A stretch of DNA of 25,518 nucleotides from Gemmataceae bacterium (GTDB lineage: Bacteria; Planctomycetota; Planctomycetia; Gemmatales; Gemmataceae). Below, piece after piece: positions 3,146-25,518 of this stretch. How positions within the stretch are numbered: the stretch's first letter is position 1; each line of letters starts with the position of its first letter. The notes beneath the pieces are model-generated. The model was not told the origin of the DNA, did no database searches, and worked only from the letters and a program-made list of their open reading frames with translations. Position numbers and translations under genes: made by a program. The stretch covers positions 1 to 25,518 of the forward strand of contig CANJKY010000001.1 of NCBI GenBank assembly GCA_947474875.1, given 5' to 3'.

Positions 3146-4675
3146 TCAGTTGGCGAATCCGATCACCGCCCGCACCGCCTTCCGCCACGTGGTCAGCTTG
3201 CGGTCGCGGTCGGCGGCGGGCATCGCCGGCTCGAACCGCTGCCCCGCCGCCAGCAGCGACCGCAGCTTCGCCTCGTCCGTCAGCCCGGCTCCGACGCCGG
3301 CCAGGAACGCCGCCCCCAGTGCCGTCGATTCACTCTGGGCGGCGCGGACCACCGGCCGGCCGAGCACGTCCGCCTGGAACTGCAGGAACCAGTCGTTGCG
3401 GGCCATGCCGCCGTCCACGCGGAGCGGGGAGTCTTGTAGCCGCGACCCAGCGGGGAGCGCGTTCGGCCCCGACGCGCTCCCCGCTGGGTCGCGGCTACTA
3501 GATGCCTCCACCAAATCCGCCACCTGATACGCCACACCTTCCAGCGCCGCCCGCGCCAGGTCCGCGGCGGTCGTGGCCCTCGTCAGGCCGAAGATCGCTC
3601 CACGGGCCTCCGGCACCCAGTGCGGGGCGCCCAGCCCGACGAACCCGGGCACGAACAGTACCGGCTCGGCCGGGTTCGACTCCTTCGCCAGCCGCTCGGA
3701 CTCGGCCGCCGAGGTGAACAGGTGCAGGCCGTCGCGGAGCCACTGTACGGCGGCGCCGGCCACGAACACCGCCCCTTCCAGGGCGTACTGCGGTTTGGTG
3801 TCGGTCATCGCCGCCACGGTGGTGAGTAGCCGGTTGGCGGACGACACCGGGGTGTCACCGGTGTGCAGCAGGTAGAACGCGCCGGTGCCGTAGGTGCATT
3901 TCCCCTCGCCGGGGGCGAAGCACCCCTGGCCGTACAGCGCCGCCTGCTGGTCTCCGGCGATACCGCGGATGGGGATGCCATCAGGCAGGAAGTCCAGCCC
4001 CTTCGTGACGCCGAACGCGGCGGCGGACGGCTTCACCTCCGGCAGCAGCGACCGCGGCACGCCGAAATAGCGGAGGAGTTCATCGTCCCATTGCAGGGTG
4101 TGGATGTTGAACAGCAGGGTGCGGCTGGCGTTGGTCGTGTCGGTGGCGTGGCTCGCCCCGCCGGTCAGTCGCCAGACGAGGAACGAGTCGATCGTTCCGG
4201 CCGCCACTTCGCCCCGCTCGGCCGCCACCTTCACCGCCGGATTTGCTTCGAGCAGCCACCGCAGCTTCGTTCCGCTGAAGTACGGGTCCAGCACCAAGCC
4301 GGTCTTCGGCGTGAGCCACGGCTGGTCGGCCGCCCGCTCGCGGCAGAAGTCGGTCGTCCGCCGGTCCTGCCAGACGATCGCCCGGCCGACGGGCCGGCCG
4401 GTGGTGCGGCCCCACACCACGATGGTTTCGCGCTGGTTGGTGATGCCGACGGCGGCGACATCACTTCCCGATTTGCCGGCGTTCGCCAGCGCCTCGCGGA
4501 CGGTGCGGGCGACCGAGTACCAGATGTCTTCCGGTTCGTGTTCGACCCACCCGTCCTTCGGGTAGTGCTGCTCGATCTCCTGCTGGGCCGAGCCGAGGAC
4601 GGCGAACGTGCCGGGGTCGAACACGACCGCCCGGGACGAGGTGGTGCCCTGGTCGATGGCGAGGAGGACGGTCAT
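3146..4675 (-). CDS. glpK: Glycerol kinase (FGGY family) carrying an in-frame palindromic insertion
   Basis: AIDQGTTSSR, GITNQRET, WQDRR, DPYFSGTK, TDTTNASRT, GDQQAAL, KCTYGTG and RVDGG motifs. True start is ATG 4675 (MTVLL), not the 5938 start in the ORF track. Confidence 0.97.
   Translation of the reverse strand: MTVLLAIDQGTTSSRAVVFDPGTFAVLGSAQQEIEQHYPKDGWVEHEPEDIWYSVARTVREALANAGKSGSDVAAVGITNQRETIVVWGRTTGRPVGRAIVWQDRRTTDFCRERAADQPWLTPKTGLVLDPYFSGTKLRWLLEANPAVKVAAERGEVAAGTIDSFLVWRLTGGASHATDTTNASRTLLFNIHTLQWDDELLRYFGVPRSLLPEVKPSAAAFGVTKGLDFLPDGIPIRGIAGDQQAALYGQGCFAPGEGKCTYGTGAFYLLHTGDTPVSSANRLLTTVAAMTDTKPQYALEGAVFVAGAAVQWLRDGLHLFTSAAESERLAKESNPAEPVLFVPGFVGLGAPHWVPEARGAIFGLTRATTAADLARAALEGVAYQVADLVEASSSRDPAGSASGPNALPAGSRLQDSPLRVDGGMARNDWFLQFQADVLGRPVVRAAQSESTALGAAFLAGVGAGLTDEAKLRSLLAAGQRFEPAMPAADRDRKLTTWRKAVRAVIGFAN
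3436..3498. repeat. GTAG-tagged REPIN-like palindrome (family A), inside glpK
   Basis: 27-nt arm GTAGCCGCGACCCAGCGGGGAGCGCGT (3436-3462), 9-nt loop, exact reverse complement (3472-3498). Total 63 nt. Sister copies at 20980 and 25474. Confidence 0.93.
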
Positions 4676-4704
4676 GGGGGAGGCCCGGCGGGAGCGGGGG
4701 TGCG

Positions 4705-7371
4705 TTACATCTTCACCACTTCGCGGGTGAAGTCCTCGGTCTTGGCGTACACCGTCAGCAGGGTGTCGCCGATCTCGAAGAACGTGCCCTCGCGTTCGTC
4801 CTTGCTCAGCGCCAGGTCCGGGTACTTGGCCGAGATCTGGTCCGCGGTCTGGGCCGGCACGTCCAGTTCGTCCGGTAGCAGGCCGGTGCTGCCGATGTAG
4901 AACACCAGCGCGCTCAGCCGGTCGCGGAACAACTTCTCCTGCTGCGCTTCCAGCTTCTTGCGGGCGTCGGTCAGGGCGGCCACGAACGCCTTCTTGTCCG
5001 GCTCGTCGCCCCGCAGCCGCGCCTGCACGATCTTCGCCAGGTCCTTCGCCCCCACCTCTTCGAGCAACTGCACCGTCACCCCGGTCGGCTTCAGCCCGAG
5101 GAACTCGTCGAAGTAGTCCTTCATCAGCTCGTCCACCTTCGTCACCTTCACGCGGGCAGAGAGCGTCTTGAACCCGTACTTCCAGCCGCCGTTCACCGCG
5201 TCCTCGAACTTCGGCTTCTCCACCGGCACCCCGTTCGCCTTCACCTCGTACATCCGCTCCAGGAACTTGTTCGCCGAGTGCAGCTTGCCCAGGTTCAGGA
5301 TGTGCCGGTTGCCGATGTCGATCTTGTAGCTGGTGCGGGTGTCCAGGGTGCCGTTGCTGAGCGCGGTCAGCCGGTCGGTGTACGGCACGGTGGTGGGGAA
5401 GTTGAGGAATAGGCTCTTGCTCAGGTAGTGCTTCTTCAGGTCCTCCACCTGCTCCGGGGTGAAGTCCTCGGCCGCCTCCTTCAGGTGGGCGGCGCACAGG
5501 CTGGCCAGGATCTTCAGCCCGCACAGGTGGTCGTACACGCCGGTGAAGTCGGGGGTGCCGGCGAACGGCGGGACGAGCGGCAGTTGGTCCAGCCGCAGCA
5601 GGTAGTCGGCCTTCGGGTCGTGCTTGCCGGCCGGGGTGCCGTCGGCGGCCTCCAGGATGCCTTCCTTCGCCAGCGCGTCGAACAGCTTCTTCCCGCTGAT
5701 CCGCACCTTCAGGGTCTGCACGTTCAGCTCGCCGTCGCCCACCAGGGTGTAGTTGTTGAACGTGCGGAGCTGGTCCAGCTTCACCCCGGCCACCTGCGAG
5801 ATCACCTCGTTGCCCTTCACCTTCACCAGTTTCACCCGCCGGGAGATGAGCATGTTCAGGGTGGCCGCGTTGCGGTTCACGTCGAAGCTGCTGACGCGGA
5901 CGTACTCGTCGTCGTCCACGTACTCGGTCTTCAGCCACGGCTCGGTCAGGTTGCCGTTCTCGTCGCGGGTGCCCTGCAGCCGCTTCACCCCGCGGCGGAC
6001 GTAGTGCTCCTGTAGGTACGGAAGGTTTACCAGGTAGTCACCGGCATTCTCCTCCAGCAGCTTGATCACGTTCACCAGCGGCATCCGCTTGTTCACCGGC
6101 ACCTGGCTGAGGATCTGGTGGCTTCCCAGTTCGCCCGGGTCACTCAGCAGCTTGTCCAGGTCGGTGGTCAGGGCGGCCACCTGTAGGTTCGTCAGCGCCT
6201 TGCCGTGCGCCAGCACCATCGTCGCATCGAACGCGCTGGCCAGGGCGTACTTGGCGGTGTTCAGGTTGCCCACCGCCAACTGCCCGCGGGCGAAGGCGTA
6301 CACCGCCTCGCTCGTCTGCACCTCCGGCACGTCCTTGAGCGCCTTGTACTCCTTCGCGTCCACCGGCCGGTACTGGTACACGGCCGCGTCGTGCTCCGGC
6401 TTGATGCCCATCACCTTCAGCCCGCCGGCCGCCCCGTTCACCCGCCCGGCGGCGTGGCTCACGAACACCTGGAACTCGCACCCCTTCGGCAGCGGCACCT
6501 CCACCGGCGGGGTGAGCGACGCGCCGAGCGTCCGGGTGTTCTCGTACAGGGTGTCGTACATGATCTTGATGTTGCCCGCCTTCACGCACGACCCGCCCAC
6601 GCTGTTCGCCACCCGCGACAGCAGGCGGAAGTCGGAATAGTCCGTGTACGCGATGGTGTTCACGAACACGTCCTTGCCCTGCAGCGTCTTGGTGAGCGCC
6701 ATCAGGCTGGTCACCTCGGCGTTGCTGGACGGGTCGTTGGCGTACCCGTCACTGTGTACGGTGATGCTGGTCAGCTCGCCGTCCCGCACCAGGCTCTCGG
6801 CCAGCCGCAGCCCGCCGGAGATGCACGTCAGGCACGTCGCCTCCAGCCGCTTGATCTGCTGCTGCTCCGGGCTGCCGGTCTTCATGATGTCGGCGATCGG
6901 CACCCGCTGGAAGTGGCAGGTGACGTCGCCCACGCTGCTGTACGAGATGAGCGTGACCACTAGGTTGAACCGCTTGTACTCGTCCAGGGTGAGCAGCTTG
7001 AGCAGGGTGTCCCGCACCTCCCGCATCTGCCCGTACATGCTGCCAGAGCGGTCCACCACGATGATGCTGTGGGCGATGGTCTTGGCCTTCGGATCCGGCT
7101 TGCCCCGTTCCAGTTCCACCCGATCGACCAGGTAGTACGCCCGCGGCTCGCCGAGCAGGTTGAACAGGGTGAACTTGGACCGGCCTTCGGGCACCGGCAG
7201 CGCCCCGGCGGACACCAGCTTCACCTTCGGGGCGACCGGCTTGCGGGTGGCGGGGGTCTTCGCCACCGCCTTCTTCGCTGCTGAGGCCGCGGGCTTCTTG
7301 GCGGGAGGTTTCTTCGCGGTGGGCTTGGCGGACTTCTTCGGCGCGGGCTTCTTGGCGGGCAGCTTCGCCAT
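4705..7371 (-). CDS. von Willebrand factor A domain protein with Lys/Ala/Pro-rich N-terminal tail and an unassigned C-terminal region
   Basis: IIVVDRSGSM (MIDAS DxSxS), downstream T (ATCLT) and HSDG. 888-aa ORF with strongly GC-biased third positions. Confidence 0.85.
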   Translation of the reverse strand: MAKLPAKKPAPKKSAKPTAKKPPAKKPAASAAKKAVAKTPATRKPVAPKVKLVSAGALPVPEGRSKFTLFNLLGEPRAYYLVDRVELERGKPDPKAKTIAHSIIVVDRSGSMYGQMREVRDTLLKLLTLDEYKRFNLVVTLISYSSVGDVTCHFQRVPIADIMKTGSPEQQQIKRLEATCLTCISGGLRLAESLVRDGELTSITVHSDGYANDPSSNAEVTSLMALTKTLQGKDVFVNTIAYTDYSDFRLLSRVANSVGGSCVKAGNIKIMYDTLYENTRTLGASLTPPVEVPLPKGCEFQVFVSHAAGRVNGAAGGLKVMGIKPEHDAAVYQYRPVDAKEYKALKDVPEVQTSEAVYAFARGQLAVGNLNTAKYALASAFDATMVLAHGKALTNLQVAALTTDLDKLLSDPGELGSHQILSQVPVNKRMPLVNVIKLLEENAGDYLVNLPYLQEHYVRRGVKRLQGTRDENGNLTEPWLKTEYVDDDEYVRVSSFDVNRNAATLNMLISRRVKLVKVKGNEVISQVAGVKLDQLRTFNNYTLVGDGELNVQTLKVRISGKKLFDALAKEGILEAADGTPAGKHDPKADYLLRLDQLPLVPPFAGTPDFTGVYDHLCGLKILASLCAAHLKEAAEDFTPEQVEDLKKHYLSKSLFLNFPTTVPYTDRLTALSNGTLDTRTSYKIDIGNRHILNLGKLHSANKFLERMYEVKANGVPVEKPKFEDAVNGGWKYGFKTLSARVKVTKVDELMKDYFDEFLGLKPTGVTVQLLEEVGAKDLAKIVQARLRGDEPDKKAFVAALTDARKKLEAQQEKLFRDRLSALVFYIGSTGLLPDELDVPAQTADQISAKYPDLALSKDEREGTFFEIGDTLLTVYAKTEDFTREVVKM

Positions 7372-7485
7372 CGACGAACCTCGTGTGCGGATGAGACCGT
7401 AGGTGACGGGAGGTGGTTGAGGGAGTTTAGCGATTCGCCCCCACCTGGGGGAAAGTCGGCAGGTGAGCCGGGGCGGATTTTGTGA

Positions 7486-7556
7486 GCCGCTCTTCGCCGC
7501 GACCTCCGGGAGCGGTTGGGCCTTGACCGCTCCCGGAGGTCGCGGCGAAGAGCGGC
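7486..7556. repeat. REPIN-like perfect inverted repeat (family D), possibly also a terminator
   Basis: 31-nt arm GCCGCTCTTCGCCGCGACCTCCGGGAGCGGT (7486-7516), 9-nt loop, exact reverse complement (7526-7556). Lies 1 nt after the stop codon of the upstream minus-strand gene. Confidence 0.88.
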
Positions 7557-7557
7557 G

Positions 7558-8526
7558 TCACAGCCCCAGCCGCTCCCGCACCCACCCGGCCACCGCTTCG
7601 GCGTCCGCCTGTTCGGGGTACTCGGCGAACGGGATCTCGATCGGGCCGGGGTGCGTCGGGTCGAGCACCAGCGTGGGCATGAACACCGGCCGCACGCTCC
7701 GCCTCGTCCGCCGGGTGGCCGTCCGCACGTCGATGTCTCGCACCGCCGATCGCGGCACGGTGGTCGTCACCCGCCCGGTCGGGGAGGTGGGCACCGTGAG
7801 CGAATCCAGCCCCTCGACCACCGCCCGCGGCACCCGGAACCGCCACGCGAGCAGCCCGCACGCCACCAGGATGCCCGCCCAGATGCCGCCGTCCGCCGCC
7901 CACGACACCGGCACCCCGCCCCAGTCGTGGACCCCGAGGATGACCACGAAAATGCCGGCGAACGACAGCCCGAGCAGGGCAGCTGCGAACACCCCGGTCG
8001 GCCCCAGCCCGTTCAGCCGGGCGGCGTACCCGTCGGCCGTCGGCCGCACGTCGCGGGCCGGGTCGAACTGTCGCCGGCGAGTGACCGCCGCCCACCACGC
8101 CCACCCAAGGCCGACGGCGATCACGTTGAACGGCGTGAGGGCGAGCAGCACCAGCAGCACGTCCGGCCTCAGCCCGGACACCAGCACCGCCTCGGCCGGG
8201 TCGGCCGGGTTGTAATGCACGGTGACGCGGGAGCCGACCGGTAGGGCGGCGTGAACCGCCCGCCACTTGCCGCTCGGCAGCAGGTGCGGGCCGGGCTGGT
8301 ACTCGCGACCGGTGAGTCGCTGCCCATCCACGGTGTAGGTGTACGCCAGGTCGAGGGACACCGACCCCTTCCGCCCGTGCCGCAGCTCGCTGCGGCTGAC
8401 GACGCCGTCGGTCGGCGTCCAGTCGGCCGAGCGGACCGCCGTGCGGACGCCGTAGGCGACGGCCGCGTCGGCCACCAGCACGAACCCGGCCCACACGAGA
8501 AAGAAGAGTGTGAGAAGAAACCGCAT
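7558..8526 (-). CDS. DUF3592-like membrane protein
   Basis: N-terminal TM segment, then W..T.GVV..S...Y.YTVDG...V.VHYNPADP.EAVL, a pattern typical of DUF3592, then further TM helices. Start ATG 8526 (MRFLL) is preferred over 8691. Confidence 0.75.
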   Translation of the reverse strand: MRFLLTLFFLVWAGFVLVADAAVAYGVRTAVRSADWTPTDGVVSRSELRHGRKGSVSLDLAYTYTVDGQRLTGREYQPGPHLLPSGKWRAVHAALPVGSRVTVHYNPADPAEAVLVSGLRPDVLLVLLALTPFNVIAVGLGWAWWAAVTRRRQFDPARDVRPTADGYAARLNGLGPTGVFAAALLGLSFAGIFVVILGVHDWGGVPVSWAADGGIWAGILVACGLLAWRFRVPRAVVEGLDSLTVPTSPTGRVTTTVPRSAVRDIDVRTATRRTRRSVRPVFMPTLVLDPTHPGPIEIPFAEYPEQADAEAVAGWVRERLGL

Positions 8527-8730
8527 CGGCGCTCCCAGCGGGTGCGGATTAAGGTAGCCGATCGCTTCGTCGGTGTGGTAGTGTTGCCGCTCGGATTCAC
8601 CCGTCGGGAAACACGACACCCGCCGCGGAGGAATGCCGCACTCATGTGTGGAACGCCGACACCCGGCGATTATGCTGGTACGGTCCACCAACCCGTTGCC
8701 CGTCTTTCACCCGAATCGGGGCTGCTTGCT

Positions 8731-10034
8731 ATGAGCCGAGTGATCCGCCTGCGGTTGGTGTTTCTGCTGGCGCTGGTGGTACCCGGGTCGGCCGTCGCCC
8801 AGGTGCCAACTTATACCAAGTGGACGGGCAGCACGGCCCTGCCCAAACCCCAGGGGAACAGCAACCAGGGCTCCCCGCTCACCCTCACCTGGGGGTTCAT
8901 GGCGCCGGGCACGCCGATCAACGACAGCGGCAGCAGCGGGTTCGCCAACGCGAACAACGACCTGCAGACCCGGCTGAACACCATCTACGGCAGCCAGGCG
9001 ACGTGGCAGCCGCTGTTCCAGAGCGTGTTCGACCGCTGGTCGTCGGTCAGCGGGCTGAGCTACCAGTTCGAGGCGAACGACGACGGGGCGGCGATCACCG
9101 GCGGCACGTCGAGCGGGTTCCCCACCGGCGTGCTGGGCACCCGGGCGGACATCCGCATCGGCGGCAAGCCGCTGGACGGGAACAGCGGCACCCTGGCGTA
9201 CAACTACTTCCCGAGCATCGGCGAGATGGTGATCGACACGAACGACAGCTTCTTCGCCGACACCAGCTCAGGGTCGATCAAACTGCGGAACGTGGTGGCG
9301 CACGAGCACGGGCACGGCATCGGCATGCCGCACGTCACCTCGTCCACCAACTCGTTCCTGATGAACCCGTTCTACAGCGGGGCGTTCGACGGCCCGCAGT
9401 ACCACGACATCCTGGCCGCCCAGTACATGTACGGCGACGCGCGGGAGAAATCGAACGGCGGGCTGGGGAACGACACCGCGGCGCGGGCCAACCCGCTCGG
9501 CACGTTCGGCGTCGGCGGGAGCACGTCCATCGGCAACAGCGCCCGCACCATCAGCGTGGCCCCCACCGCCACCGACTTCGTCAGCATCGACTCGCAGACG
9601 GACACCGACTTCTACAAGTTCACCCTGAGCGAGCCGGCCACGGCGACCGTGAAGTTGGAGGCGCTCGGGTTCACCTACAACGTCGGCACCCAGGGCGGGT
9701 CGTCGGTGACGTTCGACAGCAAGTCGCGGAGTAACCTGAAGCTGGCCATCCTGGCCGCCGACGGCACCACCCTCCTCGCGTTCGCCGACGCCACCGGGTT
9801 TGGCGGGGACGAGACGCTCGTTTACAACTTCGGCGGCGCCGGCGACTACTACCTGCGGGTGACCGGCGAGGACAACCCCGACGGTGTGGCACTGGTCGCC
9901 CAGTTCTACGGGCTGACCCTGACCCTTACCCCGGTGCCCGAGCCGGCCACCGTGCTGGTGGTGGCGGGGGTGGCGCTGGGCGGCGGCTGGCTCGTCCGCC
10001 GGGTGCGGCGGGGCGGGGCTGCCGCCCCGGCCGG

Positions 10035-10050
<16 letters not shown>
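8731..10050 (+). CDS. Matrixin-family (metzincin) metalloprotease with PPC-like domain and PEP-CTERM tail
   Basis: Signal peptide from ATG 8731, ADIRIG, zinc motif HEHGHGIGMPH, Met-turn LMNP, PPC-like DTDFYKF...GDYYLRV. C-terminal VPEP, then a TM segment, then RRVRR. Confidence 0.9.
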
Positions 10051-11153
<1,103 letters not shown>

Positions 11154-11438
11154 GAGTCTCGGGGTTCGGGGGTGGGGCCGGCGCAAACTAGATGAATGAT
11201 ACGAAGTGCGTGCGGCGGCGTCCGGGATGTGGTGTGGTCCGCGCCCGCAGGTGGGCTCTGGCAGAGTAGGCGTTTCACGACGTGGATCGTTCGCCGTCCA
11301 AATTGTCTTCCTCTGAATTGTCGCCCTCGAACAGATGTGGACCTGGGGTCGGGGGGGGGAGGGGGGACGTCTCTCACCCGTCGTCAATCGGGATGGTTTT
11401 GGTTGTACGCAGATCGGGCGCGAGGGCGATGCGGTTGA

Positions 11439-12827: not shown

Positions 12828-12926
12828 AACGGCGGGGGTTCGTTCGGCCGGGGTTCGGGCAACCCCATCATCATAGAGCGGGGGGCAACGGCGTGCGACC
12901 GGAGTGTCCGGAATCGCCCGGACGGG

Positions 12927-13784: not shown

Positions 13785-13949
13785 GGGACACCCTCCGGGG
13801 ATGGTCGCACCCGGATTTTACGAACCGGGGGCGCGGCCGTGAATTGACAGGCTCCGCCTATCACACCCATCCGGGGAACCGATTTCACCCCCGGCCGGCG
13901 GTCGCTACCATACCCGTACCATTCCCCTCCTTCCGGAGACGTGTTCCCG

Positions 13950-16220: not shown

Positions 16221-16261
16221 GGTGGGCAACCCCGCCGCCTCTGCACCAAGGGAATCGCCCG

Positions 16262-16771
16262 ATGCCCGCACCGAAAGTCACGCCCGACGGGTGGGTCGTC
16301 AGCGACCCGAACCTCTTTTACTTCTTCACCTCTCACGAACCGCCTCGCCCCAACGTTGTCTGGAGGCTGTTGTGGGAAGATGCCCGGAGTTGGAGACCTC
16401 TCGCGTTGTGGGCCACAGCCGCCGGATTGTTCGCGGCGGCCGTCATCACCGAGTGGTGGGTACCGGTGGCACCCGGTGTGGGCGTGCTTTATTTCTGGTT
16501 CCTGATGTTCCGGCGTACCGTGCCCTACTTCCGCGACAGCCCGGTGCTGACGGGTGTGATCGAAGATGATCTACGACCGCATCCGTTGCCGATTCTCGGG
16601 AACCTCTCGACGGCCATCGCGACGACCCCGGACGAACGAGAAATCCCGGTCTTCTTTTACACCGAGCATGTGACTGAGTTGTTCAAGCAGGCGCGAACGG
16701 TCGAGGTGGTGTTCCTTCACGAACCCAGTTCCCAGTACTGTATGGTGCTCGGTGCCAGGGCACGGGTGTGA
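16262..16771 (+). CDS. Hypothetical membrane protein
   Basis: ATG 16262 with upstream AAGGGA; 169 aa; two hydrophobic segments (LALWATAAGLFAAAVI, VGVLYFWFLMF); fills the gap between the kinase and the repeats. Confidence 0.6.
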   Translation: MPAPKVTPDGWVVSDPNLFYFFTSHEPPRPNVVWRLLWEDARSWRPLALWATAAGLFAAAVITEWWVPVAPGVGVLYFWFLMFRRTVPYFRDSPVLTGVIEDDLRPHPLPILGNLSTAIATTPDEREIPVFFYTEHVTELFKQARTVEVVFLHEPSSQYCMVLGARARV

Positions 16772-16783
16772 CGGAATCCAAGA

Positions 16784-16971
16784 ACCTCACCCCCCGGCCC
16801 CCTCTCCAAAGTGGAGAGGGGGTGTTCAAGCGAGGAACGTGGTGCCCGTCGTCGCCGCGAGCTTGCGAGCGGAGCCAGCTACCCCGCTCGCAGACTCGCG
16901 GCGGCGACACAGATGCGCATCCCGTTTGAACACCCCCTCTCCGGCTCGGAGAGGGGGCCGGGGGGTGAGGT
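16784..16971. repeat. Composite element: two inverted 46-nt repeats (family B) enclosing a second palindrome
   Basis: 16784-16829 ACCTCACCCCCCGGCCCCCTCTCC-AAAGT-GGAGAGGGGGTGTTCAA matches the reverse complement of 16926-16971 except in the 5-nt loop (42/46). Confidence 0.88.
16848..16908. repeat. REPIN-like imperfect inverted repeat (family C) nested inside family B
   Basis: Arm GTCGTCGCCGCGAGCTTGCGAGCGG (16848-16872) versus the reverse complement of 16884-16908: 22/25 matches, 11-nt spacer. Confidence 0.8.
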
Positions 16972-17020
16972 CTTCACGAACGCCATTCTCTCGCTCCCGC
17001 TTGGGGTACACCAATCGCTC

Positions 17021-17683
17021 ATGCTGCACCCCTGGACCCTGACCCCGGACGAGGCGGTGGCCCTCCAGACGGAGCTGGCCGGCCGGGTCGAGCTGTGCCC
17101 GCTCGGGCCGGTCCGCACCGTCGCCGGGTGCGACATCGCCTACGACACGTTCGCCCCCGTCCTGCACGCCGCGGTGGTGGTCGTGCGGCTGCCGGACCTG
17201 GTCGAGGTGGAGCGGGCGGTGGTCCGCGCCGAAGCGGCGTTCCCGTATGTGCCGGGGTTGCTGTCTTTCCGGGAGTGTCCCGCTTTGTTATCCGCCGTGG
17301 CCGCGTTGCGCCGGGTGCCGGACGTGCTCATGGTGGACGGACAGGGCGTCGCCCACCCGCGGCGGTTCGGGCTGGCCTGCCACCTTGGCCTGTGGCTGGA
17401 TCGGCCGGTGGTCGGGTGCGCGAAGACGTGGCTGGTCGGCGACCACGCCGAGGTCGGCCCGAATGCCGGCGACGCCACCCCGTTGACCCTGGATGGCGAA
17501 ACGGTCGGGGCGGTGGTGCGAACCGCCGACGGAGTGCGGCCGTGCTACGTCTCGCCGGGTCACCGGTGCGACGTGGACTCGGCTGTTGGGCTGGTGCGGC
17601 AGGTACTAAGCGGCTTTCGCCACCCGGTGCCGACGCGGTTGGCGCACATGGCGGCGAACGAGGCACGGGCGGCGGACGGCTAG
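17021..17683 (+). CDS. nfi: Endonuclease V (deoxyinosine 3' endonuclease)
   Basis: AGCD, FPYVPGLLSFRE, VDGQGVAHPRRFGLACHLG, GCAKT, YVSPGH. Start ATG 17021 (MLHPW). Confidence 0.95.
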   Translation: MLHPWTLTPDEAVALQTELAGRVELCPLGPVRTVAGCDIAYDTFAPVLHAAVVVVRLPDLVEVERAVVRAEAAFPYVPGLLSFRECPALLSAVAALRRVPDVLMVDGQGVAHPRRFGLACHLGLWLDRPVVGCAKTWLVGDHAEVGPNAGDATPLTLDGETVGAVVRTADGVRPCYVSPGHRCDVDSAVGLVRQVLSGFRHPVPTRLAHMAANEARAADG

Positions 17684-18055
17684 TTGCAGTCAAGGTTTCC
17701 CCGACTTGAGGCGATGTGTCAAAATGGGCGAAACAAACCCGACCTGGCGGCCCTGCGCCGCATCAAGCTGGAACGACTGATTGAACCCCTGCGCCGCGCC
17801 ATCGGGTGTAAATTGCCCAGTCGAACGCCGCCAATTTCTTTCACATGCCCCGGCGCGGCCGACGATGCAGAGGGGTAGAATGGACCCGCCCTGGGGTGAA
17901 CACCTGGCCCCTGGCGGTGGCGGATGGAGAGGGAACTGGACCGCCCCGCCCGACCGGACTAGACAGACACCACGATGCCTCCCCCGTCCCCCCGCTGGTC
18001 TGGCCGACGGAACCCGTCGGACCGGCGGCTGCGAGCGGCCCGACACCGCACCCTC

Positions 18056-18253
18056 ATGAGCGACACCCCGACCCGTCCGTTGAACGCGTCCGCCGACCCG
18101 GACGACTGTCCGCCCCGCCCCGGCGACGACGGCATCCGCTGGGAGCTGGTCCACCGCATGAAGCGGCTGATCGCCCAGGGGAAGCTGGACACCCCGGAGC
18201 GGTGGGCGCTGGCCGAGGAGATGCTGTTCCGCGCGACCGAGGACCGGCGGTAA
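18056..18253 (+). CDS. Small protein resembling the C-terminal part of anti-sigma-28 FlgM
   Basis: GIRWELVHRMKRLIAQGKLDTPERW resembles the FlgM pattern R.e.V..ik..I..G.y. This is recalled similarity only. Confidence 0.5.
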   Translation: MSDTPTRPLNASADPDDCPPRPGDDGIRWELVHRMKRLIAQGKLDTPERWALAEEMLFRATEDRR

Positions 18254-18287
18254 AATAGGCTCGGCCTGTCGCCACCGGAGTTCCCCT

Positions 18288-18773
18288 GTGCCGCTCCCCG
18301 CTGTTGCGGTGTCGCAAACCCCCGAGGAGCGGTTCCGCGAGTACCTGATCAGCCGGCCGAAGCCGCAGCGGTTCACCGACCAGCAGCGGGAGCTGGTCCG
18401 CCACATCTTCGCCAAGCACTCGCACTTCGACACCGACGAACTGCTGGCCGAGCTGCGGCGGTCGGCCCGGCGGGTAAGCCGGGCGACGGTGTACCGCACC
18501 CTGACCAAACTGGTGGACGCCGGCCTACTACGGCGGATCGAGATCGACTCCCGCACGGTGTACGACCACGACTACGGGTACCCGTGGCACGAGCACCTGG
18601 TGTGCAAGGGGTGTGGGAAGTTGATCGAGTTCACCGACACCGGCATCGTGGCGGCGGTGAAGGCGGTGGCCGCCGCCCACCGCTTCCAGGTGGACGGGTA
18701 CGACCTGGTGGTGAAGGGCACCTGCGGCGAGTGCAACGCCGCCGCCGCGGCGAAGCGGCGGTACGTGATGTGA
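18288..18773 (+). CDS. Fur-family transcriptional regulator
   Basis: GTG start with GGAG RBS; HFDTDEL, VSRATVYRTL helix-turn-helix, HEHLVCKGCG and C-terminal GTCGEC. Confidence 0.92.
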   Translation: MPLPAVAVSQTPEERFREYLISRPKPQRFTDQQRELVRHIFAKHSHFDTDELLAELRRSARRVSRATVYRTLTKLVDAGLLRRIEIDSRTVYDHDYGYPWHEHLVCKGCGKLIEFTDTGIVAAVKAVAAAHRFQVDGYDLVVKGTCGECNAAAAAKRRYVM

Positions 18774-18801
18774 CCGGCCCATCCCGACGGACCTACCCCA
18801 C

Positions 18802-20985
18802 ATGCTCCGGGAAGAGCAGATCGAGATCCGCCGGCAGCGGGCGAAGGCCGGGCGGTACGTCATCAGGAACCTGGGCAAGAACCGGGTGTTCTCCGACTAC
18901 GCCGTGTCGAACCCGCAGACCGGCGGGGCGTACACGGTGGCCGTCCGCGGGTTCGACACCGGCGACAACACCTGCACCTGCCCGGACTTCAAGGCGAACA
19001 CCCTCGGCACCTGCAAGCACATCGAGGCGGTGCTGGAGGAGCTGAAGGACGACAACCCGGCGCACGTGCGGAAGAAGAAGGCGGCGGTGGTGCGGCCGGA
19101 GGTGTACCTGCACTACGGCGAGGCCCTGCAACTCGGCATCCACCTGCCGCCGCGGCACACCGACAAGCTCGCGGCAGTGGCGAAGAAGTACTTCGACGAC
19201 AAGGGGCTGTGGTCCGGCCGCGGGCGGTTCGAGGACCTGATCGCGGACGTGGAGAAGGTGCCGGAGGAGGTGACGGTCCGGTCGGACGCGCTCGACTTCC
19301 TGGACCGCGAGCTGGAACGCATCGACATGCGGCGGCGGGAGGACGAGTGGCTGGCGCAACTCGACGCCGGCACCCTCGACCTGAACCTGCTGAGCGTCCC
19401 GCTGTACGACTACCAGACGCGGGGTGCGCTGTTCCTGGCCTGCCGCGGCCGGAGCATCTTGGGCGACGACATGGGGCTGGGCAAAACGATTCAGACGCTC
19501 GCCGCCATCGAGTTGCTGGCCCGCGAGCGGGGGATCAGCCGGGTGCTGGTGGTGGCCCCGGCGAGCGTGAAATACCAGTGGGAAGGGGAGATCCGGAAGT
19601 TCACCAAACGGGCGGTGCAGGTGATCGAGGGCGGGCCGGACGACCGCCAGGACCAGTACGCCGCCGCCACCTTCTACCGGCTGGTGAACTACCAGCAGGT
19701 GGTGCGGGACCGCGACGCCATCAACGCCTGGAACCCGGACCTGATCGTGCTGGACGAGGCCCAGCGGATCAAGAACTGGGAGTCGAAGACCAGCCGGGCG
19801 GTGAAGAAGCTGGTCAGCCGGTACGCCATCGTGCTCACCGGCACCCCGCTGGAGAACAAGCTGGAGGAGCTGTACAGCATCGTCCAGTTCGTGGACGAGC
19901 GGCGGTTCGGCCCGGCCTTCCAGTTCCTGCACGACCACCGCGTGCTGGACGACAAGGGCAACCTGACCGGCTACCGCAACCTGGACACCATCCGCGAGCG
20001 GCTGGAGCCGATCTTCCTCCGCCGCACCCGCGGCGAGGTGCTGACCGAACTGCCGGCCCGCACCGACAACACGGTGTTCGTCGAGCTGAGCGAGGAGCAG
20101 CGGAGGCCCTACGAGGAACAGCGGACCGCCCTCGCCCGCCTGCTCACCAAAAACTTCCTCACCGACCTGGACCGCAAGCGGATCCTGGCCTGCCTGTCGA
20201 ACCTGCGGCTGATCTGCGACAGCACGTTCCTGTTCGACAAAGCCACCCACCACTCGCCCAAGCTGGACGAACTGGCCGACCTGCTGCCCGAACTGCTGTC
20301 CGGTGGGCCGCACAAGCTGGTGGTGTTCAGCCAGTGGGAGACAATGCTCAACCTGGCCGCGTCCACGCTGGAGCGGAAGGGGGTGGGATACGCTCTGCTG
20401 CACGGCGGGCTGAGCGGCAAGGACCGCAAGGCCGCGCTGGAGCGGTTCAAGACCGACCCGAAGTGCCGGGTGTTCCTGAGCACCGACGCCGGCGGGGTGG
20501 GGCTGAACCTGCAGATGGCCGACACGGTGGTGAACCTGGAACTGCCGTGGAACCCGGCAGTGCTGGAGCAGCGGATCGCCCGCGTCCACCGGCTCGGACA
20601 GGAGCGGCCGGTGCGGGTGATTAACCTGGTCACCCGCGGGACGATCGAGGAGCAGGTGCTGCGGACGCTGGAGCGGAAGCAGGGGCTGTTCGCCGGGGTG
20701 TTCGACGGGGAGGAGGACGAGATCGCGTTCGCGGCGGTGAACCCCGGCGGGTTTCTGGACGCGGTGCGGGAGATGATCGGCGAGAAGCGGACCGAGCCGG
20801 TGGTGGAAGCGCCGCCCCCCCTGCCGCCGGCGGTGCCGGCGCTCGACGCCGGCCCGACCCTGCTGCCCACCGCCGTGCAGATGCTCGAATCGCTGGCCGA
20901 GTTGCTGGCGAACCCGGACGCGCGGAAGCGGCTGACGGCCGAGCAGCGGCGACGGATCGCTGCGGCGGTCGAGAAGTTGTCGTAG
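18802..20985 (+). CDS. SNF2-family helicase/ATPase with an N-terminal SWIM zinc finger
   Basis: CTCPDF...CKH (SWIM), GDDMGLGKT, DEAQRIKN, LTGTPLEN, STDAGGVGLNLQ, WNPAVLEQRIARVHR. Confidence 0.93.
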   Translation: MLREEQIEIRRQRAKAGRYVIRNLGKNRVFSDYAVSNPQTGGAYTVAVRGFDTGDNTCTCPDFKANTLGTCKHIEAVLEELKDDNPAHVRKKKAAVVRPEVYLHYGEALQLGIHLPPRHTDKLAAVAKKYFDDKGLWSGRGRFEDLIADVEKVPEEVTVRSDALDFLDRELERIDMRRREDEWLAQLDAGTLDLNLLSVPLYDYQTRGALFLACRGRSILGDDMGLGKTIQTLAAIELLARERGISRVLVVAPASVKYQWEGEIRKFTKRAVQVIEGGPDDRQDQYAAATFYRLVNYQQVVRDRDAINAWNPDLIVLDEAQRIKNWESKTSRAVKKLVSRYAIVLTGTPLENKLEELYSIVQFVDERRFGPAFQFLHDHRVLDDKGNLTGYRNLDTIRERLEPIFLRRTRGEVLTELPARTDNTVFVELSEEQRRPYEEQRTALARLLTKNFLTDLDRKRILACLSNLRLICDSTFLFDKATHHSPKLDELADLLPELLSGGPHKLVVFSQWETMLNLAASTLERKGVGYALLHGGLSGKDRKAALERFKTDPKCRVFLSTDAGGVGLNLQMADTVVNLELPWNPAVLEQRIARVHRLGQERPVRVINLVTRGTIEEQVLRTLERKQGLFAGVFDGEEDEIAFAAVNPGGFLDAVREMIGEKRTEPVVEAPPPLPPAVPALDAGPTLLPTAVQMLESLAELLANPDARKRLTAEQRRRIAAAVEKLS

Positions 20986-21045
20986 CCGCGACCCAGCGGG
21001 GAGCGCGCCGGATGGAACGCGCTCCCCGCTGGGTCGCGGCTACGA
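20980..21045. repeat. Family A REPIN-like palindrome between convergent genes
   Basis: 28-bp perfect stem TCGTAGCCGCGACCCAGCGGGGAGCGCG with a 10-nt loop. It contains the helicase TAG stop at 20983-20985. Confidence 0.93.
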
Positions 21046-21054
21046 AGCCCCGCC

Positions 21055-22038
21055 CTACTCCTTCTCCGTCAGCACCGCCCGCACGTCGGCGGCGGGCACG
21101 GTCAGCTTCACCACCATTTGCAGCGCCGACGGCGTCGGAGCCGGGGCCGCGTCCTTCTTCTTGTCGTCGTCCCGCCGGTTCACCGTCCGGCGGACCATCG
21201 ACTGCCGCGCCTTCCGCACCGCCTTGTCCGCCTGCCCCCCGCCGTCGTCCGGGTAGTCGATGTTCTCGGTCAGCGCCGCCATGCCCACCACGTTCCCGAA
21301 CTTGTCCACCACCGGCGACCCGCTCGACCCGTATGCGTAGTCCGCCGTGATGCTCATCCACCGCGTCTTCGTGTCGTCGTCCTCGGTGTACGTCGAGTAC
21401 CGGCTGACGTGCCCCTGGGTGAACGTGTAGTACCGGTCGCCGGGGTGCCCGAGCACGCCCACCCATGCCCCCACCTTCGCCGGCTTGTCGGCCAGCGGCA
21501 GCGGGGTCAGCCCCTTCCCCGCGATCTTCACCACCGCCACGTCCGCCGCCTTGTCGATCGCCAGCACCTCGACCAGCGGGTACACTTTGCCGTCCGCCGC
21601 CATCGCCCCGTACCACTCGTCGTCCTCGATCTGGTCGAACACGTGCCAGTTGGTGACGAGCACCCCGTCCGCCGTCGCCGCCCACGCCGTCGCCATCCGC
21701 CCCTGGTCGAACCCGTTCTCCTTGTCCCCGGTCACCGACCCGAACAGGAACACGCTCGCCCGCACCCGCTCGCCGACCTCCTCCGGTGACAGCGGCTTGT
21801 CATTGAATTTGGCCGGCGTCACCTTCGCTGTCGCCTTCTTCCTGTCCTCCACCGCCGCCTTCAGGTCGGCCGGCTTCATCCCCTTGTCCGCCTTCACCAA
21901 CTCACCGAGCTTCTTGGTGAAGTCGTCCAGCGTCTTGGTGTCATCCGTGAATTCGACCGCCTGCGGCTTGTCGGCGAGGGAAACCCCGATCGCAGCGAAC
22001 AGGATCAGCACCGGGGCGGACAAACGGAGCGCACGCAT
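21055..22038 (-). CDS. Secreted trypsin-like serine protease without a PDZ domain
   Basis: Signal peptide from ATG 22038 (MRALRLSAPVLILF); triad-like TNWHV, ADVA and GSSGSP. Confidence 0.85.
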   Translation of the reverse strand: MRALRLSAPVLILFAAIGVSLADKPQAVEFTDDTKTLDDFTKKLGELVKADKGMKPADLKAAVEDRKKATAKVTPAKFNDKPLSPEEVGERVRASVFLFGSVTGDKENGFDQGRMATAWAATADGVLVTNWHVFDQIEDDEWYGAMAADGKVYPLVEVLAIDKAADVAVVKIAGKGLTPLPLADKPAKVGAWVGVLGHPGDRYYTFTQGHVSRYSTYTEDDDTKTRWMSITADYAYGSSGSPVVDKFGNVVGMAALTENIDYPDDGGGQADKAVRKARQSMVRRTVNRRDDDKKKDAAPAPTPSALQMVVKLTVPAADVRAVLTEKE

Positions 22039-22089
22039 GGCGGGGTCCGGGTAGGATGGGGCCGAGGAATTGTACCGCAAGGTGTAGCC

Positions 22090-23013
22090 ATGCTGGAACG
22101 CCAACGCTTCCGCGGGTGTCTGCTCGGGCTGGCCGCCGGGGACGCGCTCGGCACCACCGTCGAGTTCTCGTCGCCCGGCTCGTTCGCCCCGCTCACGGAC
22201 ATCGTCGGCGGCGGGCCGTTCCAGTTGAAACCCGGCGAGTGGACGGACGACACGTCGATGGCCCTGTGTCTGGCCGAGAGCTTGGTGGAGAAGGGGTTTG
22301 ACGAGACGCACCAACTCGAAACATACTGCCGGTGGTGGCAGCACGGGCACCTGAGCGTGAAGGGACGGTGCTTCGACATCGGGCTGAAAACTCGGTCCTC
22401 GCTGGCCGCGTACTGGGAGCGGAAGAAGTTCATCCCGGTCCCGGCCGACACCTCCGCCGGCAACGGCAGCATCATGCGGCTGGCCCCGGTGCCGATGCGA
22501 TACGCGGCCAACGCGGAGCAGGCGGTCGAGTACTCGGCCCGGTCGTCCCTCACCACCCACGGGGCAACCGAGTGCGTCGACGCCTGCGGGTACATGGGCG
22601 GGATCATCGTGGCCGCGCTGCACGGCCGATCGAAGGATGAATTGCTGTCACCACGGTTCAGCCCGGTGCCGGGGTTGTTCGAGAAGGTGCCGGTGGCGGC
22701 GAAAATCCGCGAGGTGGCGGACGGGTCGTTCAAGCGGAACGACCCGCCGCAGATCGTCGGCAGCGGGTACGTGGTGAAGTCGCTGGAAGCGGCGCTGTGG
22801 GCGTTTCACCGGACGAGCGACTTCCGGTCCGGGGCGCTGCTGGCGGTGAACCTGGGCGACGACGCGGACACCACCGGGGCGGTGTACGGGCAGATCGCCG
22901 GGGCGTTCTACGGCGACGCCGGCATCCCCACCGGGTGGCGGGCGAAGCTGGCGATGCGGGAGCTGATCGAACAGCGGGCGGACGAGTTGTACGAGTTGGC
23001 CGCCGGCGGCTAA
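22090..23013 (+). CDS. ADP-ribosylglycohydrolase family protein (DraG/ARH-like)
   Basis: GDALG, WTDDTSMAL, GNGSIMR, THG and GDDADTTGA metal-binding motifs. Confidence 0.92.
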   Translation: MLERQRFRGCLLGLAAGDALGTTVEFSSPGSFAPLTDIVGGGPFQLKPGEWTDDTSMALCLAESLVEKGFDETHQLETYCRWWQHGHLSVKGRCFDIGLKTRSSLAAYWERKKFIPVPADTSAGNGSIMRLAPVPMRYAANAEQAVEYSARSSLTTHGATECVDACGYMGGIIVAALHGRSKDELLSPRFSPVPGLFEKVPVAAKIREVADGSFKRNDPPQIVGSGYVVKSLEAALWAFHRTSDFRSGALLAVNLGDDADTTGAVYGQIAGAFYGDAGIPTGWRAKLAMRELIEQRADELYELAAGG

Positions 23014-23026
23014 GCCGCAAGCGGCT
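23013..23026. terminator. Short hairpin between convergent genes
   Basis: AGCCG-CAAG-CGGCT overlaps the ARH stop codon inside a 17-nt gap. It has no T-tract, so its function is uncertain. Confidence 0.3.
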
Positions 23027-23030
23027 CCGA

Positions 23031-24971
23031 CTACTCCCTCCACCGCACGAACGCCTCCAGCGCGAAGTACTCGGGCAACCCCAGCGCGTCGTAGGTCTTG
23101 GCCGTCGCCAGGTTGCGGTCCTCGGCCCGCTGCCAGAACTCGCGGCGGTCGGTGCCGCCGGGGAACATCGCCTTGTCCTTTTGCGACTGGTGCCGGAAGA
23201 TCGCCTGCTTCTTCCGCTCCAGCACCTCGGGGCTCAGCGGCACGGCCATCTCGATCTCGTGCGGCTCCCACTCCTCCCACGCCCCCTTGTACAGCCAGAC
23301 CTCGAACGGCGGAACGGCGTCCGCCTTCCGCGTCCGTCGCACCGCTTCGTACACCGCCTCGGCGCAGGTGCGGTGGGTGCCGTGCGGGTCGGACAACTCG
23401 CCGGCTACGTAGATCTGGTCCGGCTTCAGTCGCCCGAACAGGGCGACGATGTCGTCGATGTCCTGCGGCTGGATCGGGTTCTTCGTCACCGTGCCGGTGC
23501 GGTAGAACCGCAGGTCCATGAACTCCAACTGCTCGGCCGGGATGCCGCACGCCAGCGCCGCCGCCCGCGCCTCCGTCGCCCGGATCATGCCCTTCACCGC
23601 CAGGATTTCGGGGCTGTCCGGCTGGCCAGGCTTCTTGGCGTCGAGGAACTGGTTCACCCGCTCCTTGATGGTGCCGGCGATGCTCTTCTCGGACACGTCG
23701 CCGAACCCGCCCAGGAACTCGTCCACGAAGTCCACGAACCGGCGGGCGTCGTGGTCGAACACGGCGATGTTCCCGCTGGTCATGTACGCGATGTGCACCT
23801 TGTGCCCCTGCTCCACCAGCCGGATGATCGTCCCGCCCATGCTGATCACGTCGTCGTCCGGGTGCGGGCTGAACACCAGGATGGTTTTCGGCTCCGGCCT
23901 GGGTGGATCGGCCTTCCCCTCCAGGCCCCGCCCGCGGCGTTCGGCCGCGCCCCGCCCGGCCGGGTACGGCTGGATGGTGGCCAGCCGGTCGTGGAACACC
24001 GCCTCGCCGATCTTCTCGGCCGGCCCCTGCTCCCGCAGTAGTTCGTACAGGTGGTGCTCGCGGAAGTCGTCGTCGTTCAGCTTCTGCAAGCCCTTCTTCG
24101 CCGTGAGCGCCAGCCACACCACCGCCTGCCGGGTCCGCTCCGGCGTCCAGTTCACCGGCCCCACCTCCCACGGCCGCTTCACCGCCGTCGTCTCGGCCGC
24201 CGCCGCCGGGTCGAGCAGGAACAGGGCGTCCGGGTGCTCCTGCAGGAAGCTGGCCGACACCGCCTCGGTCGGCGGCTGCTCCACCGCCTTCACCACCGTC
24301 GGCGCCTTGTGCTCGCCGAACGCCATCAGGAACACCCGGCGGGCGTCCAGGATGCTGGCGACCCCCATCGTGATCGCCTGATTCGGCACGTTCTCCTCGC
24401 CGAAGAACCCGGCGGCCGCGTCCCGGCGGGTGATGCTGTCCAGGATGACCATGCGGGTGCGGCTGTTCCGCGGGCTGCCGGGTTCGTTGAACCCGATGTG
24501 CCCGGTGCGGCCGATGCCCAGGATCTGGATGTCGATCCCGCCGGCCTCGCGGATCTTCCGCTCGTAGCTCAGGCAGAACTCCTCCACCTCGTCCGGGTCC
24601 AGGGTGCCGTCCGGGATGTGGATGTTCTCCCACTTGATGTTGATGTGGCTGAACAGGGTGTCGTGCATCCACTTGAAGTAGCTGTGCGGGTCCTCCTTCG
24701 GGATGGGGAAGTACTCGTCCAGGTTGAACGTGACCACGCGGGAGAAGTCCAGCCCCTCCTCCTTGTGCATGCGGATGAGCTCGCGGTACAGCCCGACCGG
24801 GGTGCTGCCGGTGGCCAGGCCGAGCACCGTGGGCTTGTTGGCCGCGTTGCGGGCGCGGACCAGCTTGTCGATCTCGCGGGCCACGTACCGGCCGGCGGCG
24901 GTGCTGTTCGGGAACAGGAGGGCGGGGACGCGGGTGTGCGGCAGCAGGTGGTGCTGGTTCGGCGGGGGCAT
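23031..24971 (-). CDS. nagB: Glucosamine-6-phosphate deaminase fused to a PIG-L/LmbE-like domain (long NagB)
   Basis: LGLATGSTP, TFNLDEY, ILGIGRTGHIGFNEPGS (NagB), then FSPHPDDDVISMGG, YMTSGN and DPHGTH (PIG-L-like). Confidence 0.93.
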   Translation of the reverse strand: MPPPNQHHLLPHTRVPALLFPNSTAAGRYVAREIDKLVRARNAANKPTVLGLATGSTPVGLYRELIRMHKEEGLDFSRVVTFNLDEYFPIPKEDPHSYFKWMHDTLFSHINIKWENIHIPDGTLDPDEVEEFCLSYERKIREAGGIDIQILGIGRTGHIGFNEPGSPRNSRTRMVILDSITRRDAAAGFFGEENVPNQAITMGVASILDARRVFLMAFGEHKAPTVVKAVEQPPTEAVSASFLQEHPDALFLLDPAAAAETTAVKRPWEVGPVNWTPERTRQAVVWLALTAKKGLQKLNDDDFREHHLYELLREQGPAEKIGEAVFHDRLATIQPYPAGRGAAERRGRGLEGKADPPRPEPKTILVFSPHPDDDVISMGGTIIRLVEQGHKVHIAYMTSGNIAVFDHDARRFVDFVDEFLGGFGDVSEKSIAGTIKERVNQFLDAKKPGQPDSPEILAVKGMIRATEARAAALACGIPAEQLEFMDLRFYRTGTVTKNPIQPQDIDDIVALFGRLKPDQIYVAGELSDPHGTHRTCAEAVYEAVRRTRKADAVPPFEVWLYKGAWEEWEPHEIEMAVPLSPEVLERKKQAIFRHQSQKDKAMFPGGTDRREFWQRAEDRNLATAKTYDALGLPEYFALEAFVRWRE

Positions 24972-25061
24972 AGAGGGTCGTGGGTCCGCGGGAGGGTAGG
25001 TCCGGGGAATACGGTTGTCTTACGGCCGGACGCCGGGGGCGGCACCGACTACCAAGACAGC

Positions 25062-25463
25062 ATGAACCCGCTCGGCGTCACCCACCTCGACCACTGCTCC
25101 GTCATCGTCACCGACGTGGCCGCGGCCCGCGCGTTCTACGGCGGGGTGCTCGGCCTGCACGAGATCCCCGCCCCGAAGGAGTTCGATTTCGTGGCCGTGT
25201 GGTACGACCTGGGCGGGACGTACCTGCACCTGCTGCTCAAGCCGCACCCGGACACCATCAGCCCGCGGCACTTCTGTCTGCACGTGGCGGACGCGGCGGT
25301 GGCGCGGGAGGCGCTTCGGGCGAAGGGCGTACCCATCGACGAGACGGTGACGATCGCGGCGGCCGGCCGGTTCTTCGTCCGCGACCCGGACGGCAACCGC
25401 ATCGAGTTGTTGCAGTGGCGGCGGCGGTACGAGCCGGAGAGCGACGGGCGGTGGGCCGAATGA
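25062..25463 (+). CDS. VOC/glyoxalase family protein
   Basis: HLDHCSVIVTDV...FYGGVLGL, HFCLHV and FVRDPDGNRIEL. Start ATG 25062. Confidence 0.88.
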   Translation: MNPLGVTHLDHCSVIVTDVAAARAFYGGVLGLHEIPAPKEFDFVAVWYDLGGTYLHLLLKPHPDTISPRHFCLHVADAAVAREALRAKGVPIDETVTIAAAGRFFVRDPDGNRIELLQWRRRYEPESDGRWAE

Positions 25464-25473
25464 TGGGGATTTT

Positions 25474-25518
25474 GTAGCCGCGACCCAACGGGGAGCGCGT
25501 TGGAACTGAACGCGCTCC
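25474..25518. repeat. Family A REPIN-like palindrome, truncated by the window edge
   Basis: GTAGCCGCGACCCAACGGGGAGCGCGTT (one substitution relative to the other copies), loop GGAACTG, and the right arm beginning AACGCGCTCC. Confidence 0.9.

Follow-up and report, generated by a model that had tools for sequence, protein, structure and literature searches.

Inverted REP Doublets with a Stop-Codon-Bearing Tag in a Gemmataceae Bacterium and a Candidate Partner RAYT in a Sister Species

The DNA analyzed here (the window) is 25,518 nucleotides in length and is the entire contig C1 of a Gemmataceae bacterium assembly (the source assembly, G000). It contains three copies of a palindromic repeat, termed family A. 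Family A very probably consists of inverted doublets of repetitive extragenic palindromic (REP) sequences, known as REPINs or “double-foot” REPs, and serves as the non-autonomous partner of a REP-associated tyrosine transposase (RAYT) of the HUH Y1 type. The observations that carry this reading are the anatomy of the element, its copy number, its positions relative to genes, the lack of target-site duplications, a RAYT gene flanked by family A arms in a sister species, and the turnover of element sites among relatives.

Family A Copies in the Window

Copy 1 (positions 3436-3498) is a full inverted REP doublet. Its arms lie at 3436-3461 and 3473-3498, and its spacer at 3462-3472. Copy 2 (20982-21043) is also a full doublet and occupies the gap between two convergent genes. 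Copy 3 (25474-25518) consists of a left arm, an 11-nucleotide spacer, and the first 8 nucleotides of a right arm that is truncated by the contig end. None of the three is assigned a strand.

The 26-nucleotide arms of copies 1 and 2 are identical and perfectly complementary, as found with a repeat finder and by a direct check of the sequence. The arm of copy 3 has a single difference, at arm position 15. The spacers are 11, 10, and 11 nucleotides long in copies 1, 2, and 3, and their centers are unrelated. RNA folding of the hairpins gives −70 to −77 kcal/mol, with z scores of about −10 to −11 against shuffled sequences. Each arm begins with a four-nucleotide tag at its foot. One of the three reading frames through the arms hits the TAG of this tag and the other two are open.

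A sequence-only reading of the window had described three copies with conserved arms, located inside a coding sequence, overlapping a stop codon, and 10 nucleotides after a stop codon. Coordinates, arms, and contexts were all reproduced by the repeat finder and the sequence, and the division into one frame with TAG and two open frames matches direct reading. The loops were also described as unrelated. This holds for the spacer centers, but not for the spacers as a whole, most of which begin with T and end with A and among which a common short spacer recurs. The shorter loops given at that time are the same stretches as the 10- to 11-nucleotide spacers, with one or two closing pairs assigned to the stem. 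A scan of the window against Rfam at the gathering threshold matched no family, and no transposase gene was found within the window.

Copy Number and Anatomy

The source assembly comprises 741 contigs with a total of 4.35 Mb and 69% GC, and is 67% complete. The arm pattern, allowing up to five mismatches, has 100-102 matches in the genome, while a reversed control has 0. Approximately 70 family A loci can be recognized in the 4.35 Mb, made up of 32 full hairpins and 38 single arms. Because 16 copies lie within 70 nucleotides of a contig end, the true copy number is higher than this count. The genome-wide count and the arm and loop consensus proposed in the sequence-only reading therefore both have an answer: the count supports a high-copy element, and the consensus obtained is that of an arm with a variable spacer.

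In single-stranded DNA or RNA, the whole element is a hairpin of 26-30 base pairs in which two arms face each other across a spacer of 4-13 nucleotides. Among the 64 arms of full elements, G occupies position 1 in 39 and T in 25, giving a GTAG tag in 61% and a TTAG tag in 39%. Positions 2-4 are TAG and almost invariant. TTAG deviates from the canonical tag at its first base. The most variable position is 15, at the center of a small loop. Behind the tag, every arm folds alone to form a small hairpin with a bulge. The arm is thus a self-folding tagged hairpin and can be classified as a GTAG-type REP, and the whole element as an inverted REP doublet.

Arm positions 11 and 19 covary. The pair is C-G in 91 arms, G-C in 10, and C-A in one, with no G-G or C-C intermediate; these counts represent few independent changes, because the variant arms may share one event of origin. 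Palindromes beside related transposase genes in the genus carry a third compensated version of the same 3-base-pair stem, with the same loop.

The two arms of one element differ by a mean of 1.25 mismatches, compared to 2.72 between arms of different elements (0 of 10,000 permutations). This likeness fits doublets that would have been copied as units. The spacers of the 32 full copies start with T in 20 and end with A in 26. The common short spacer is present in about 10 copies, and the spacer centers otherwise differ. No target-site duplication of at least 2 nucleotides was found in the 32 full copies; 26 have none and 6 have 1 nucleotide.

At G000:C133:4536-5776, a complete WD40-repeat gene of 1.2 kb has a single family A arm on either side. 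The two arms are in hairpin orientation, and the gene is placed as if it were in the loop of a family A element. The stop codon of the neighboring gene is the TAG of one of these arms.

Positions Relative to Genes

Positions were classified for the 54 copies away from contig ends. Gene ends were called by a script written for this work, based on open reading frames (ORFs) and the GC content of third codon positions (GC3) and calibrated on the window genes, rather than by a gene finder. A supported ORF ends inside the tag or at most 20 nucleotides upstream of it in 42 of the 54 copies (78%). The tag's TAG doubles as the stop codon in 15 copies, for a total of 16 gene ends; the single element on contig C722 supplies the stop to both of two convergent genes. 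Nineteen copies lie between convergent genes. In two copies, the nearest supported stop is 31-49 nucleotides upstream, and four have no adjacent gene end.

The remaining six copies lie within long, well-supported ORFs and keep the reading frame. The host genes encode glycerol kinase (glpK), formamidopyrimidine-DNA glycosylase (fpg), the phenylalanyl-tRNA synthetase beta chain, a planctomycete cytochrome (PSCyt1/PSCyt2) protein, a PNP_UDP_1 phosphorylase, and one protein without an assignment. All six share one frame, in which the left arm reads SRDP.GSA and the right arm LP.GSRL, although six cases are too few to test for a bias. Two of these palindromic inserts are missing from relatives: the glpK insert is absent in G018, G002, and G011, and the fpg insert (C305) is absent in the nearest relative, G017.

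It had been proposed from the window alone that the element can land either as a peptide insert or as a stop-plus-terminator cassette. The six in-frame copies and the 15 copies that supply a stop codon agree with this, with the exception of the word terminator. Intrinsic (Rho-independent) termination is not supported: no T-run follows either foot of the hairpin, and a consensus scan of 20500-25518 picks out no copy as a terminator. The hairpins may still have a role in 3′-end stability or in read-through. Liang, Rudd, and Deutscher reportedly observed in 2015 that REPs within about 15 nucleotides of a stop codon stall terminating ribosomes in E. coli. By analogy, such stalling could apply to most family A copies.

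A RAYT Gene Flanked by Family A Arms

Contig C217 of G017 contains a 198-amino-acid ORF with two family A arms upstream and a full hairpin plus two arms downstream. The tag end of every arm points to the gene, and the stop codon of the ORF is the TAG of a tag. The encoded protein matches NCBIfam REP_Tyr_transpos with an E-value of 1e-14 and 54.5 bits, which is below the curated cutoff of 80, and Pfam Y1_Tnp with 16.7 bits, which is below the curated cutoff of 23. Y1_Tnp has 15 matches in G017.

The HUH histidines (H106 and H108) and a C-terminal tyrosine (Y176, within a YVExNP motif) are invariant in 17 homologues. A search of a library of solved structures with the single sequence returned nothing significant; the profile of 17 sequences and a structural model were required. 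The best solved match of the profile is E. coli TnpA-REP (4ER8, E-value of 9.5e-5). An AlphaFold 2 model of the protein (pLDDT 84.5) has 4er8_A as its best Foldseek match (E-value of 1.2e-5), followed by the ISDra2, IS200, and IS608 transposases. The G017 protein can be classed as a RAYT/TnpA-REP protein, with an HUH motif, a single tyrosine, and a modeled TnpA-REP/IS200 fold.

The sequence-only reading saw no mobilizing enzyme in the window and recommended a search for a RAYT flanked by the arms. The window indeed has none. A cognate RAYT with the same REPs on its flanks, the arrangement called a REPtron, is seen at G017:C217, while none was found in the source assembly at its 67% completeness.

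Every RAYT homologue in the genus has a palindrome family of its own on its flanks; one such family is that at 7486-7556 of the window. Two Y1_Tnp-like genes identified in the source assembly by Pfam search were considered as the family A enzyme and rejected, being flanked by other palindrome families. These are G000:C486:1-420 and the gene on G000:C492 (locus 1363-1851), one of which is cut by a contig end.

Distribution and Turnover Among Relatives

Family A arms are present in many copies in five of the 19 genomes of the genus and are absent from 12 genomes of a neighboring family. Among the relatives, G017 has 51 arm matches, G018 has 41, G013 and G014 have many, and four more genomes of the genus have few.

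Contig C60 of G017 is syntenic with the window, with 86-95% nucleotide identity. The copy 2 site is occupied in G017 by a different long palindrome, and the copy 3 site by yet another. A canonical family A element is found in G017 at 0 of 10 orthologous sites examined. Most of these sites carry a different palindrome family, often with the stop kept at the same codon. Other palindrome families also differ in presence between the source assembly and G017 across the 25 kb.

The glpK loop that hosts copy 1 takes several forms. It is empty in G018, G002, and G011. In G013 and G014, it contains one variant arm and the common spacer, and in the source genome the canonical doublet. In G017, a variant family A arm precedes a second, nested palindrome that belongs to another family; this compound insert is in frame, free of stops, and adds 21 codons relative to G018. 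Four element versions are present in the same loop in four species. A tree of glpK groups G000 with G017 and places G013, G014, G018, and G002 in an unresolved clade. The tree is compatible both with one ancient insertion followed by loss or conversion and with repeated insertion at a hot spot, and the two cannot be told apart from it.

Stop-codon turnover was compared for six gene ends whose stop codon is part of the tag. At the C226 and C264 sites, relatives have the same TAG codon followed by another family. At the C74 and C134 sites, relatives have TGA at the same codon, as do G018, G013, and G014 at the C264 site. At the copy 2 and C722 sites, the stop of the relative is one codon away. 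In total, the stop is at the same codon in four of the six comparisons, while the following element switches between family A (GTAG) and others. At two of the six (C134 and C722), G017 carries a family tagged GTGA, the TGA of which is the stop. This GTGA-tagged family, at G017:C113 and G017:C76 (orthologous to G000:C134 and C722), supplies TGA stops where family A supplies TAG, and has about 31 arm matches in G000.

The proposal that family A was recently active is consistent with the identical arms and with the turnover relative to the sister species; movement itself would have to be read from these patterns. Polymorphic sites, which the sequence-only reading suggested mapping between strains, are found as differences between species. 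Logan contigs of four metagenome runs over 2600-22000 are uninformative on polymorphism and on expression: the unitigs break at every palindrome, and the small indels seen in the copy 1 spacer may stem from other copies.

Proposed Mechanism and Alternatives

If family A consists of REP doublets mobilized by a RAYT, the enzyme would bind the small hairpin of an arm on single-stranded DNA, as in E. coli TnpA-REP and the IS200/IS605 paradigm. It would use the tag as a guide and would cut and rejoin there, and the doublet would be copied or exchanged without target duplication. Copies would persist where harm is small. Such places may be directly at the 3′ ends of genes, with the tag's TAG usable as a stop, or in protein surface loops, in the single reading that gives a polar peptide.

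Several points weigh against this account. The unrelated spacer centers between identical arms are not predicted by a simple copy-and-paste of the doublet. This divergence could reflect the existence of several master lineages, hypermutation or repair at the tip of the hairpin, or assembly of doublets from single REPs. The G017 RAYT protein has no match in the source assembly at an E-value of 1e-5; this absence is weak evidence because the assembly is 67% complete and is broken at these repeats. G018 has about 41 family A arm matches, yet its nearest RAYT is flanked by another family. Movement, cleavage, and polymorphism within a population were not observed, and the catalysis, direction, and timing of movement proposed above are drawn by analogy.

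An alternative is that the mobile unit is the single 26-nucleotide REP, with doublets arising when a second REP lands inverted beside a resident one. This would account for spacers of 4-13 nucleotides with unrelated centers between identical arms and for the 38 single arms, about 20 of which are away from contig ends. The WD40 gene between two inverted single arms on C133 and the arrays of single arms beside the RAYT also fit. Nonetheless, it is considered unlikely, since private variants recur in both arms of the same element far above chance and sub-families have the same short spacer. Several of the “single” arms also keep the common spacer or a decayed second arm (glpK of G013 and G014; C111 and C140) and so resemble decayed doublets.

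Less probable again is that the hairpins are selected by the host, as mRNA 3′-end protectors, translation-termination modulators, or protein-binding sites, and are kept alike by gene conversion and no longer mobilized, the RAYT link in G017 being incidental or historical. The closeness of 78% of copies to stop codons, the maintained arm pairing, and the lack of a RAYT match in the source assembly would all be expected of such hairpins. Orthologous sites nearly always hold some palindrome despite the change of family, and the hairpin itself could be what is needed. However, the six copies inside coding sequences make no sense for a 3′-end function, and the hairpins lack a T-run. Every RAYT in the genus has its own flanking family, while family A is limited to a few species and differs greatly in copy number between them. 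Exact arm identity over dozens of unlinked loci would also be hard to achieve by conversion alone. An origin as a miniature inverted-repeat transposable element (MITE), derived from a DDE-type insertion sequence and inserted by cut-and-paste through its terminal inverted repeats, is scarcely tenable. The elements are short, inverted-repeat, high-copy, and non-coding, as a MITE would be, but they have no target-site duplication, their arms abut each other rather than flanking an internal region, and the sole gene found flanked by these arms encodes an HUH/Tyr enzyme.

Within the reading of family A as RAYT-mobilized doublets, a further role of the tag is conceivable, although on balance doubtful: RAYT lineages may use it, with the stop codon that it carries, as an anchor for swapping cassettes. 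Exchange at the tag is suggested because the position of the stop codon is precisely kept across family switches at the six sites compared. The junction would lie within the stop codon, directly after GT. Should RAYTs cleave and rejoin DNA at the tag of a REP that is already in place, each REP would be an exchangeable module made up of a stop codon and a hairpin. Such modules would determine which stop codon and which C-terminal residues a gene has, and would give rise to new protein loops.

Genes Around the Window Copies

Copy 1 lies within a glycerol kinase gene of the FGGY family (3149..4681, minus strand). The product contains FGGY_N and FGGY_C Pfam domains and matches solved glycerol kinases over its full length (E-value of 9e-162). 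Copy 1 contributes 21 in-frame codons to the FGGY_C domain, between a conserved helix and the strand bearing the DGG motif. An AlphaFold 2 model of the kinase has a mean pLDDT of 84, and residues 398-414, which correspond to the insert, have a pLDDT below 50. The insert is on this basis predicted to be a floppy loop. Upstream of the kinase gene, a long minus-strand ORF at 4705-7371 has a weak vWA match (E-value of 9e-4); the sequence-only reading had described its product as a vWA protein whose tail is rich in lysine.

The TAG of the copy 2 tag (20983-20985) is the stop codon of an SNF2-family helicase ORF (18802..20985, plus strand; GC3 of 0.96) with SNF2-rel_dom, Helicase_C, and SWIM Pfam domains. 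The convergent gene is a trypsin-like peptidase ORF (21055..22623, minus strand; Pfam Trypsin_2). Its stop codon (21055-21057) is 11 nucleotides beyond the right foot of copy 2. In G017, about 1.39 kb of extra DNA is present within the region that matches the helicase gene (window 19483 versus G017:C60). Approximately 640 extra nucleotides with an open frame lie directly upstream of the helicase gene in G017:C60 (window 18778-18784).

Copy 3 begins 10 nucleotides past the TGA (25461-25463) of a glyoxalase/bleomycin-resistance-family ORF. The 3′ part of this ORF (25086..25463, plus strand) carries the Pfam Glyoxalase match, at residues 346-453 of ORF 24051-25463.

Other Palindrome Families

At least five palindrome families are present in this genome. 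Three families besides family A are found in the window, at 2064-2132, 7486-7556, and 16784-16971. The families at 2064-2132 and 7486-7556 have about 60 and about 50 arm matches in the genome, respectively, and the latter borders a RAYT homologue of its own on contig C294 of G017. The sequence at 16784-16971 is a nested unit; it is missing at the orthologous site of G017, where a small hairpin is present instead. About 113 arm matches genome-wide belong to a family whose sequence opens with GTAG and continues with GGCACAC.

Significance

The Gemmataceae-type planctomycetes are shown here to have a rich and fast-turning landscape of REPs and RAYTs, and the comparisons of orthologous sites provide a clean natural data set on how REPINs are “overwritten”. 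Family A supplies stops to about a quarter of neighboring gene ends. Its inserts add predicted loops of 8-21 residues to housekeeping enzymes, with consequences for gene calling and for the comparison of proteins. Such repeats also fragment short-read assemblies, and the contig that forms the window ends inside one.

Comparison with Known Systems

Rickettsia palindromic elements (RPEs; cited in PMC3733652) are palindromic repeats that lie in frame in genes for conserved proteins and add a peptide loop to the product. They are longer than family A and mostly intragenic, and are not known to have a cognate RAYT. Family A likewise adds in-frame peptide loops, but its intragenic copies are a minority (6 of 54).

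GTAG REPs were cataloged by Di Nocera, De Gregorio and Rocco (2013, PMC3733652). They are described there in eight phyla, including the Planctomycetes-Verrucomicrobia-Chlamydiae (PVC) superphylum. They lie mostly within 20 nucleotides of the 3′ ends of unidirectional and convergent genes, form head-to-head dimers, and flank RAYT genes as REPtrons. In-frame intragenic REPs are also reported, especially in repair genes and tRNA synthetases. Family A shares with these the tag at the foot of the stem-loop, high copy number, 3′-end placement, dimers, in-frame copies, occurrence in the PVC superphylum, and, in G017, an arm-flanked RAYT. The link between GTAG REPs and RAYT transposases cited as established in the sequence-only reading is in line with both the published REPtrons and the G017:C217 locus. 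Family A differs from the GTAG REPs in its 26-nucleotide arms, compared to cataloged stems of 6-13 base pairs, and in the TTAG tag, which makes up about 40% of family A tags. Neither the family A sequence nor its planctomycete host appears in the portion of the 2013 catalog compared.

REPINs were described as inverted REP doublets by Bertels and Rainey (2011, PMC3116915). Bharadwaj, van Dijk and Bertels (2024, bioRxiv 10.1101/2024.10.14.618302) reported that conserved extragenic spaces hold different REPIN types, which “may be overwritten”. Like the REPIN-RAYT systems of Pseudomonas and enterobacteria in these two studies, family A has two inverted REPs as one long hairpin, a cognate RAYT (seen in G017), and singlets from decay. 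Several families per genome and orthologous spaces with different types are also common to both. In contrast, family A has a very short spacer that is hypervariable, a stop codon comes from the element in about a quarter of the copies, and some copies are inside genes. The family A RAYT also falls in a planctomycete clade that scores weakly against Pfam and NCBIfam models.

The “double-foot” long REPs of TnpA-REP subclass 2.4, and in-frame REP insertions that do not break genes, were described by Quentin, Siguier, Chandler and Fichant (2018, PMC6006769). These REPs, like family A, carry a 5′ GT[AG]G foot that recurs as its reverse complement at the 3′ end, and an origin from an inverted REP dimer was suggested for them. 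The clade of the family A RAYT has the motifs DH[AV]H and YVExNP and a length of about 195 amino acids; these features have no clear match to the published subclass 2.4 signature. GTAG REPs, REPtrons, in-frame REPs, overlap with stop codons, and the overwriting of REPINs are all previously published.

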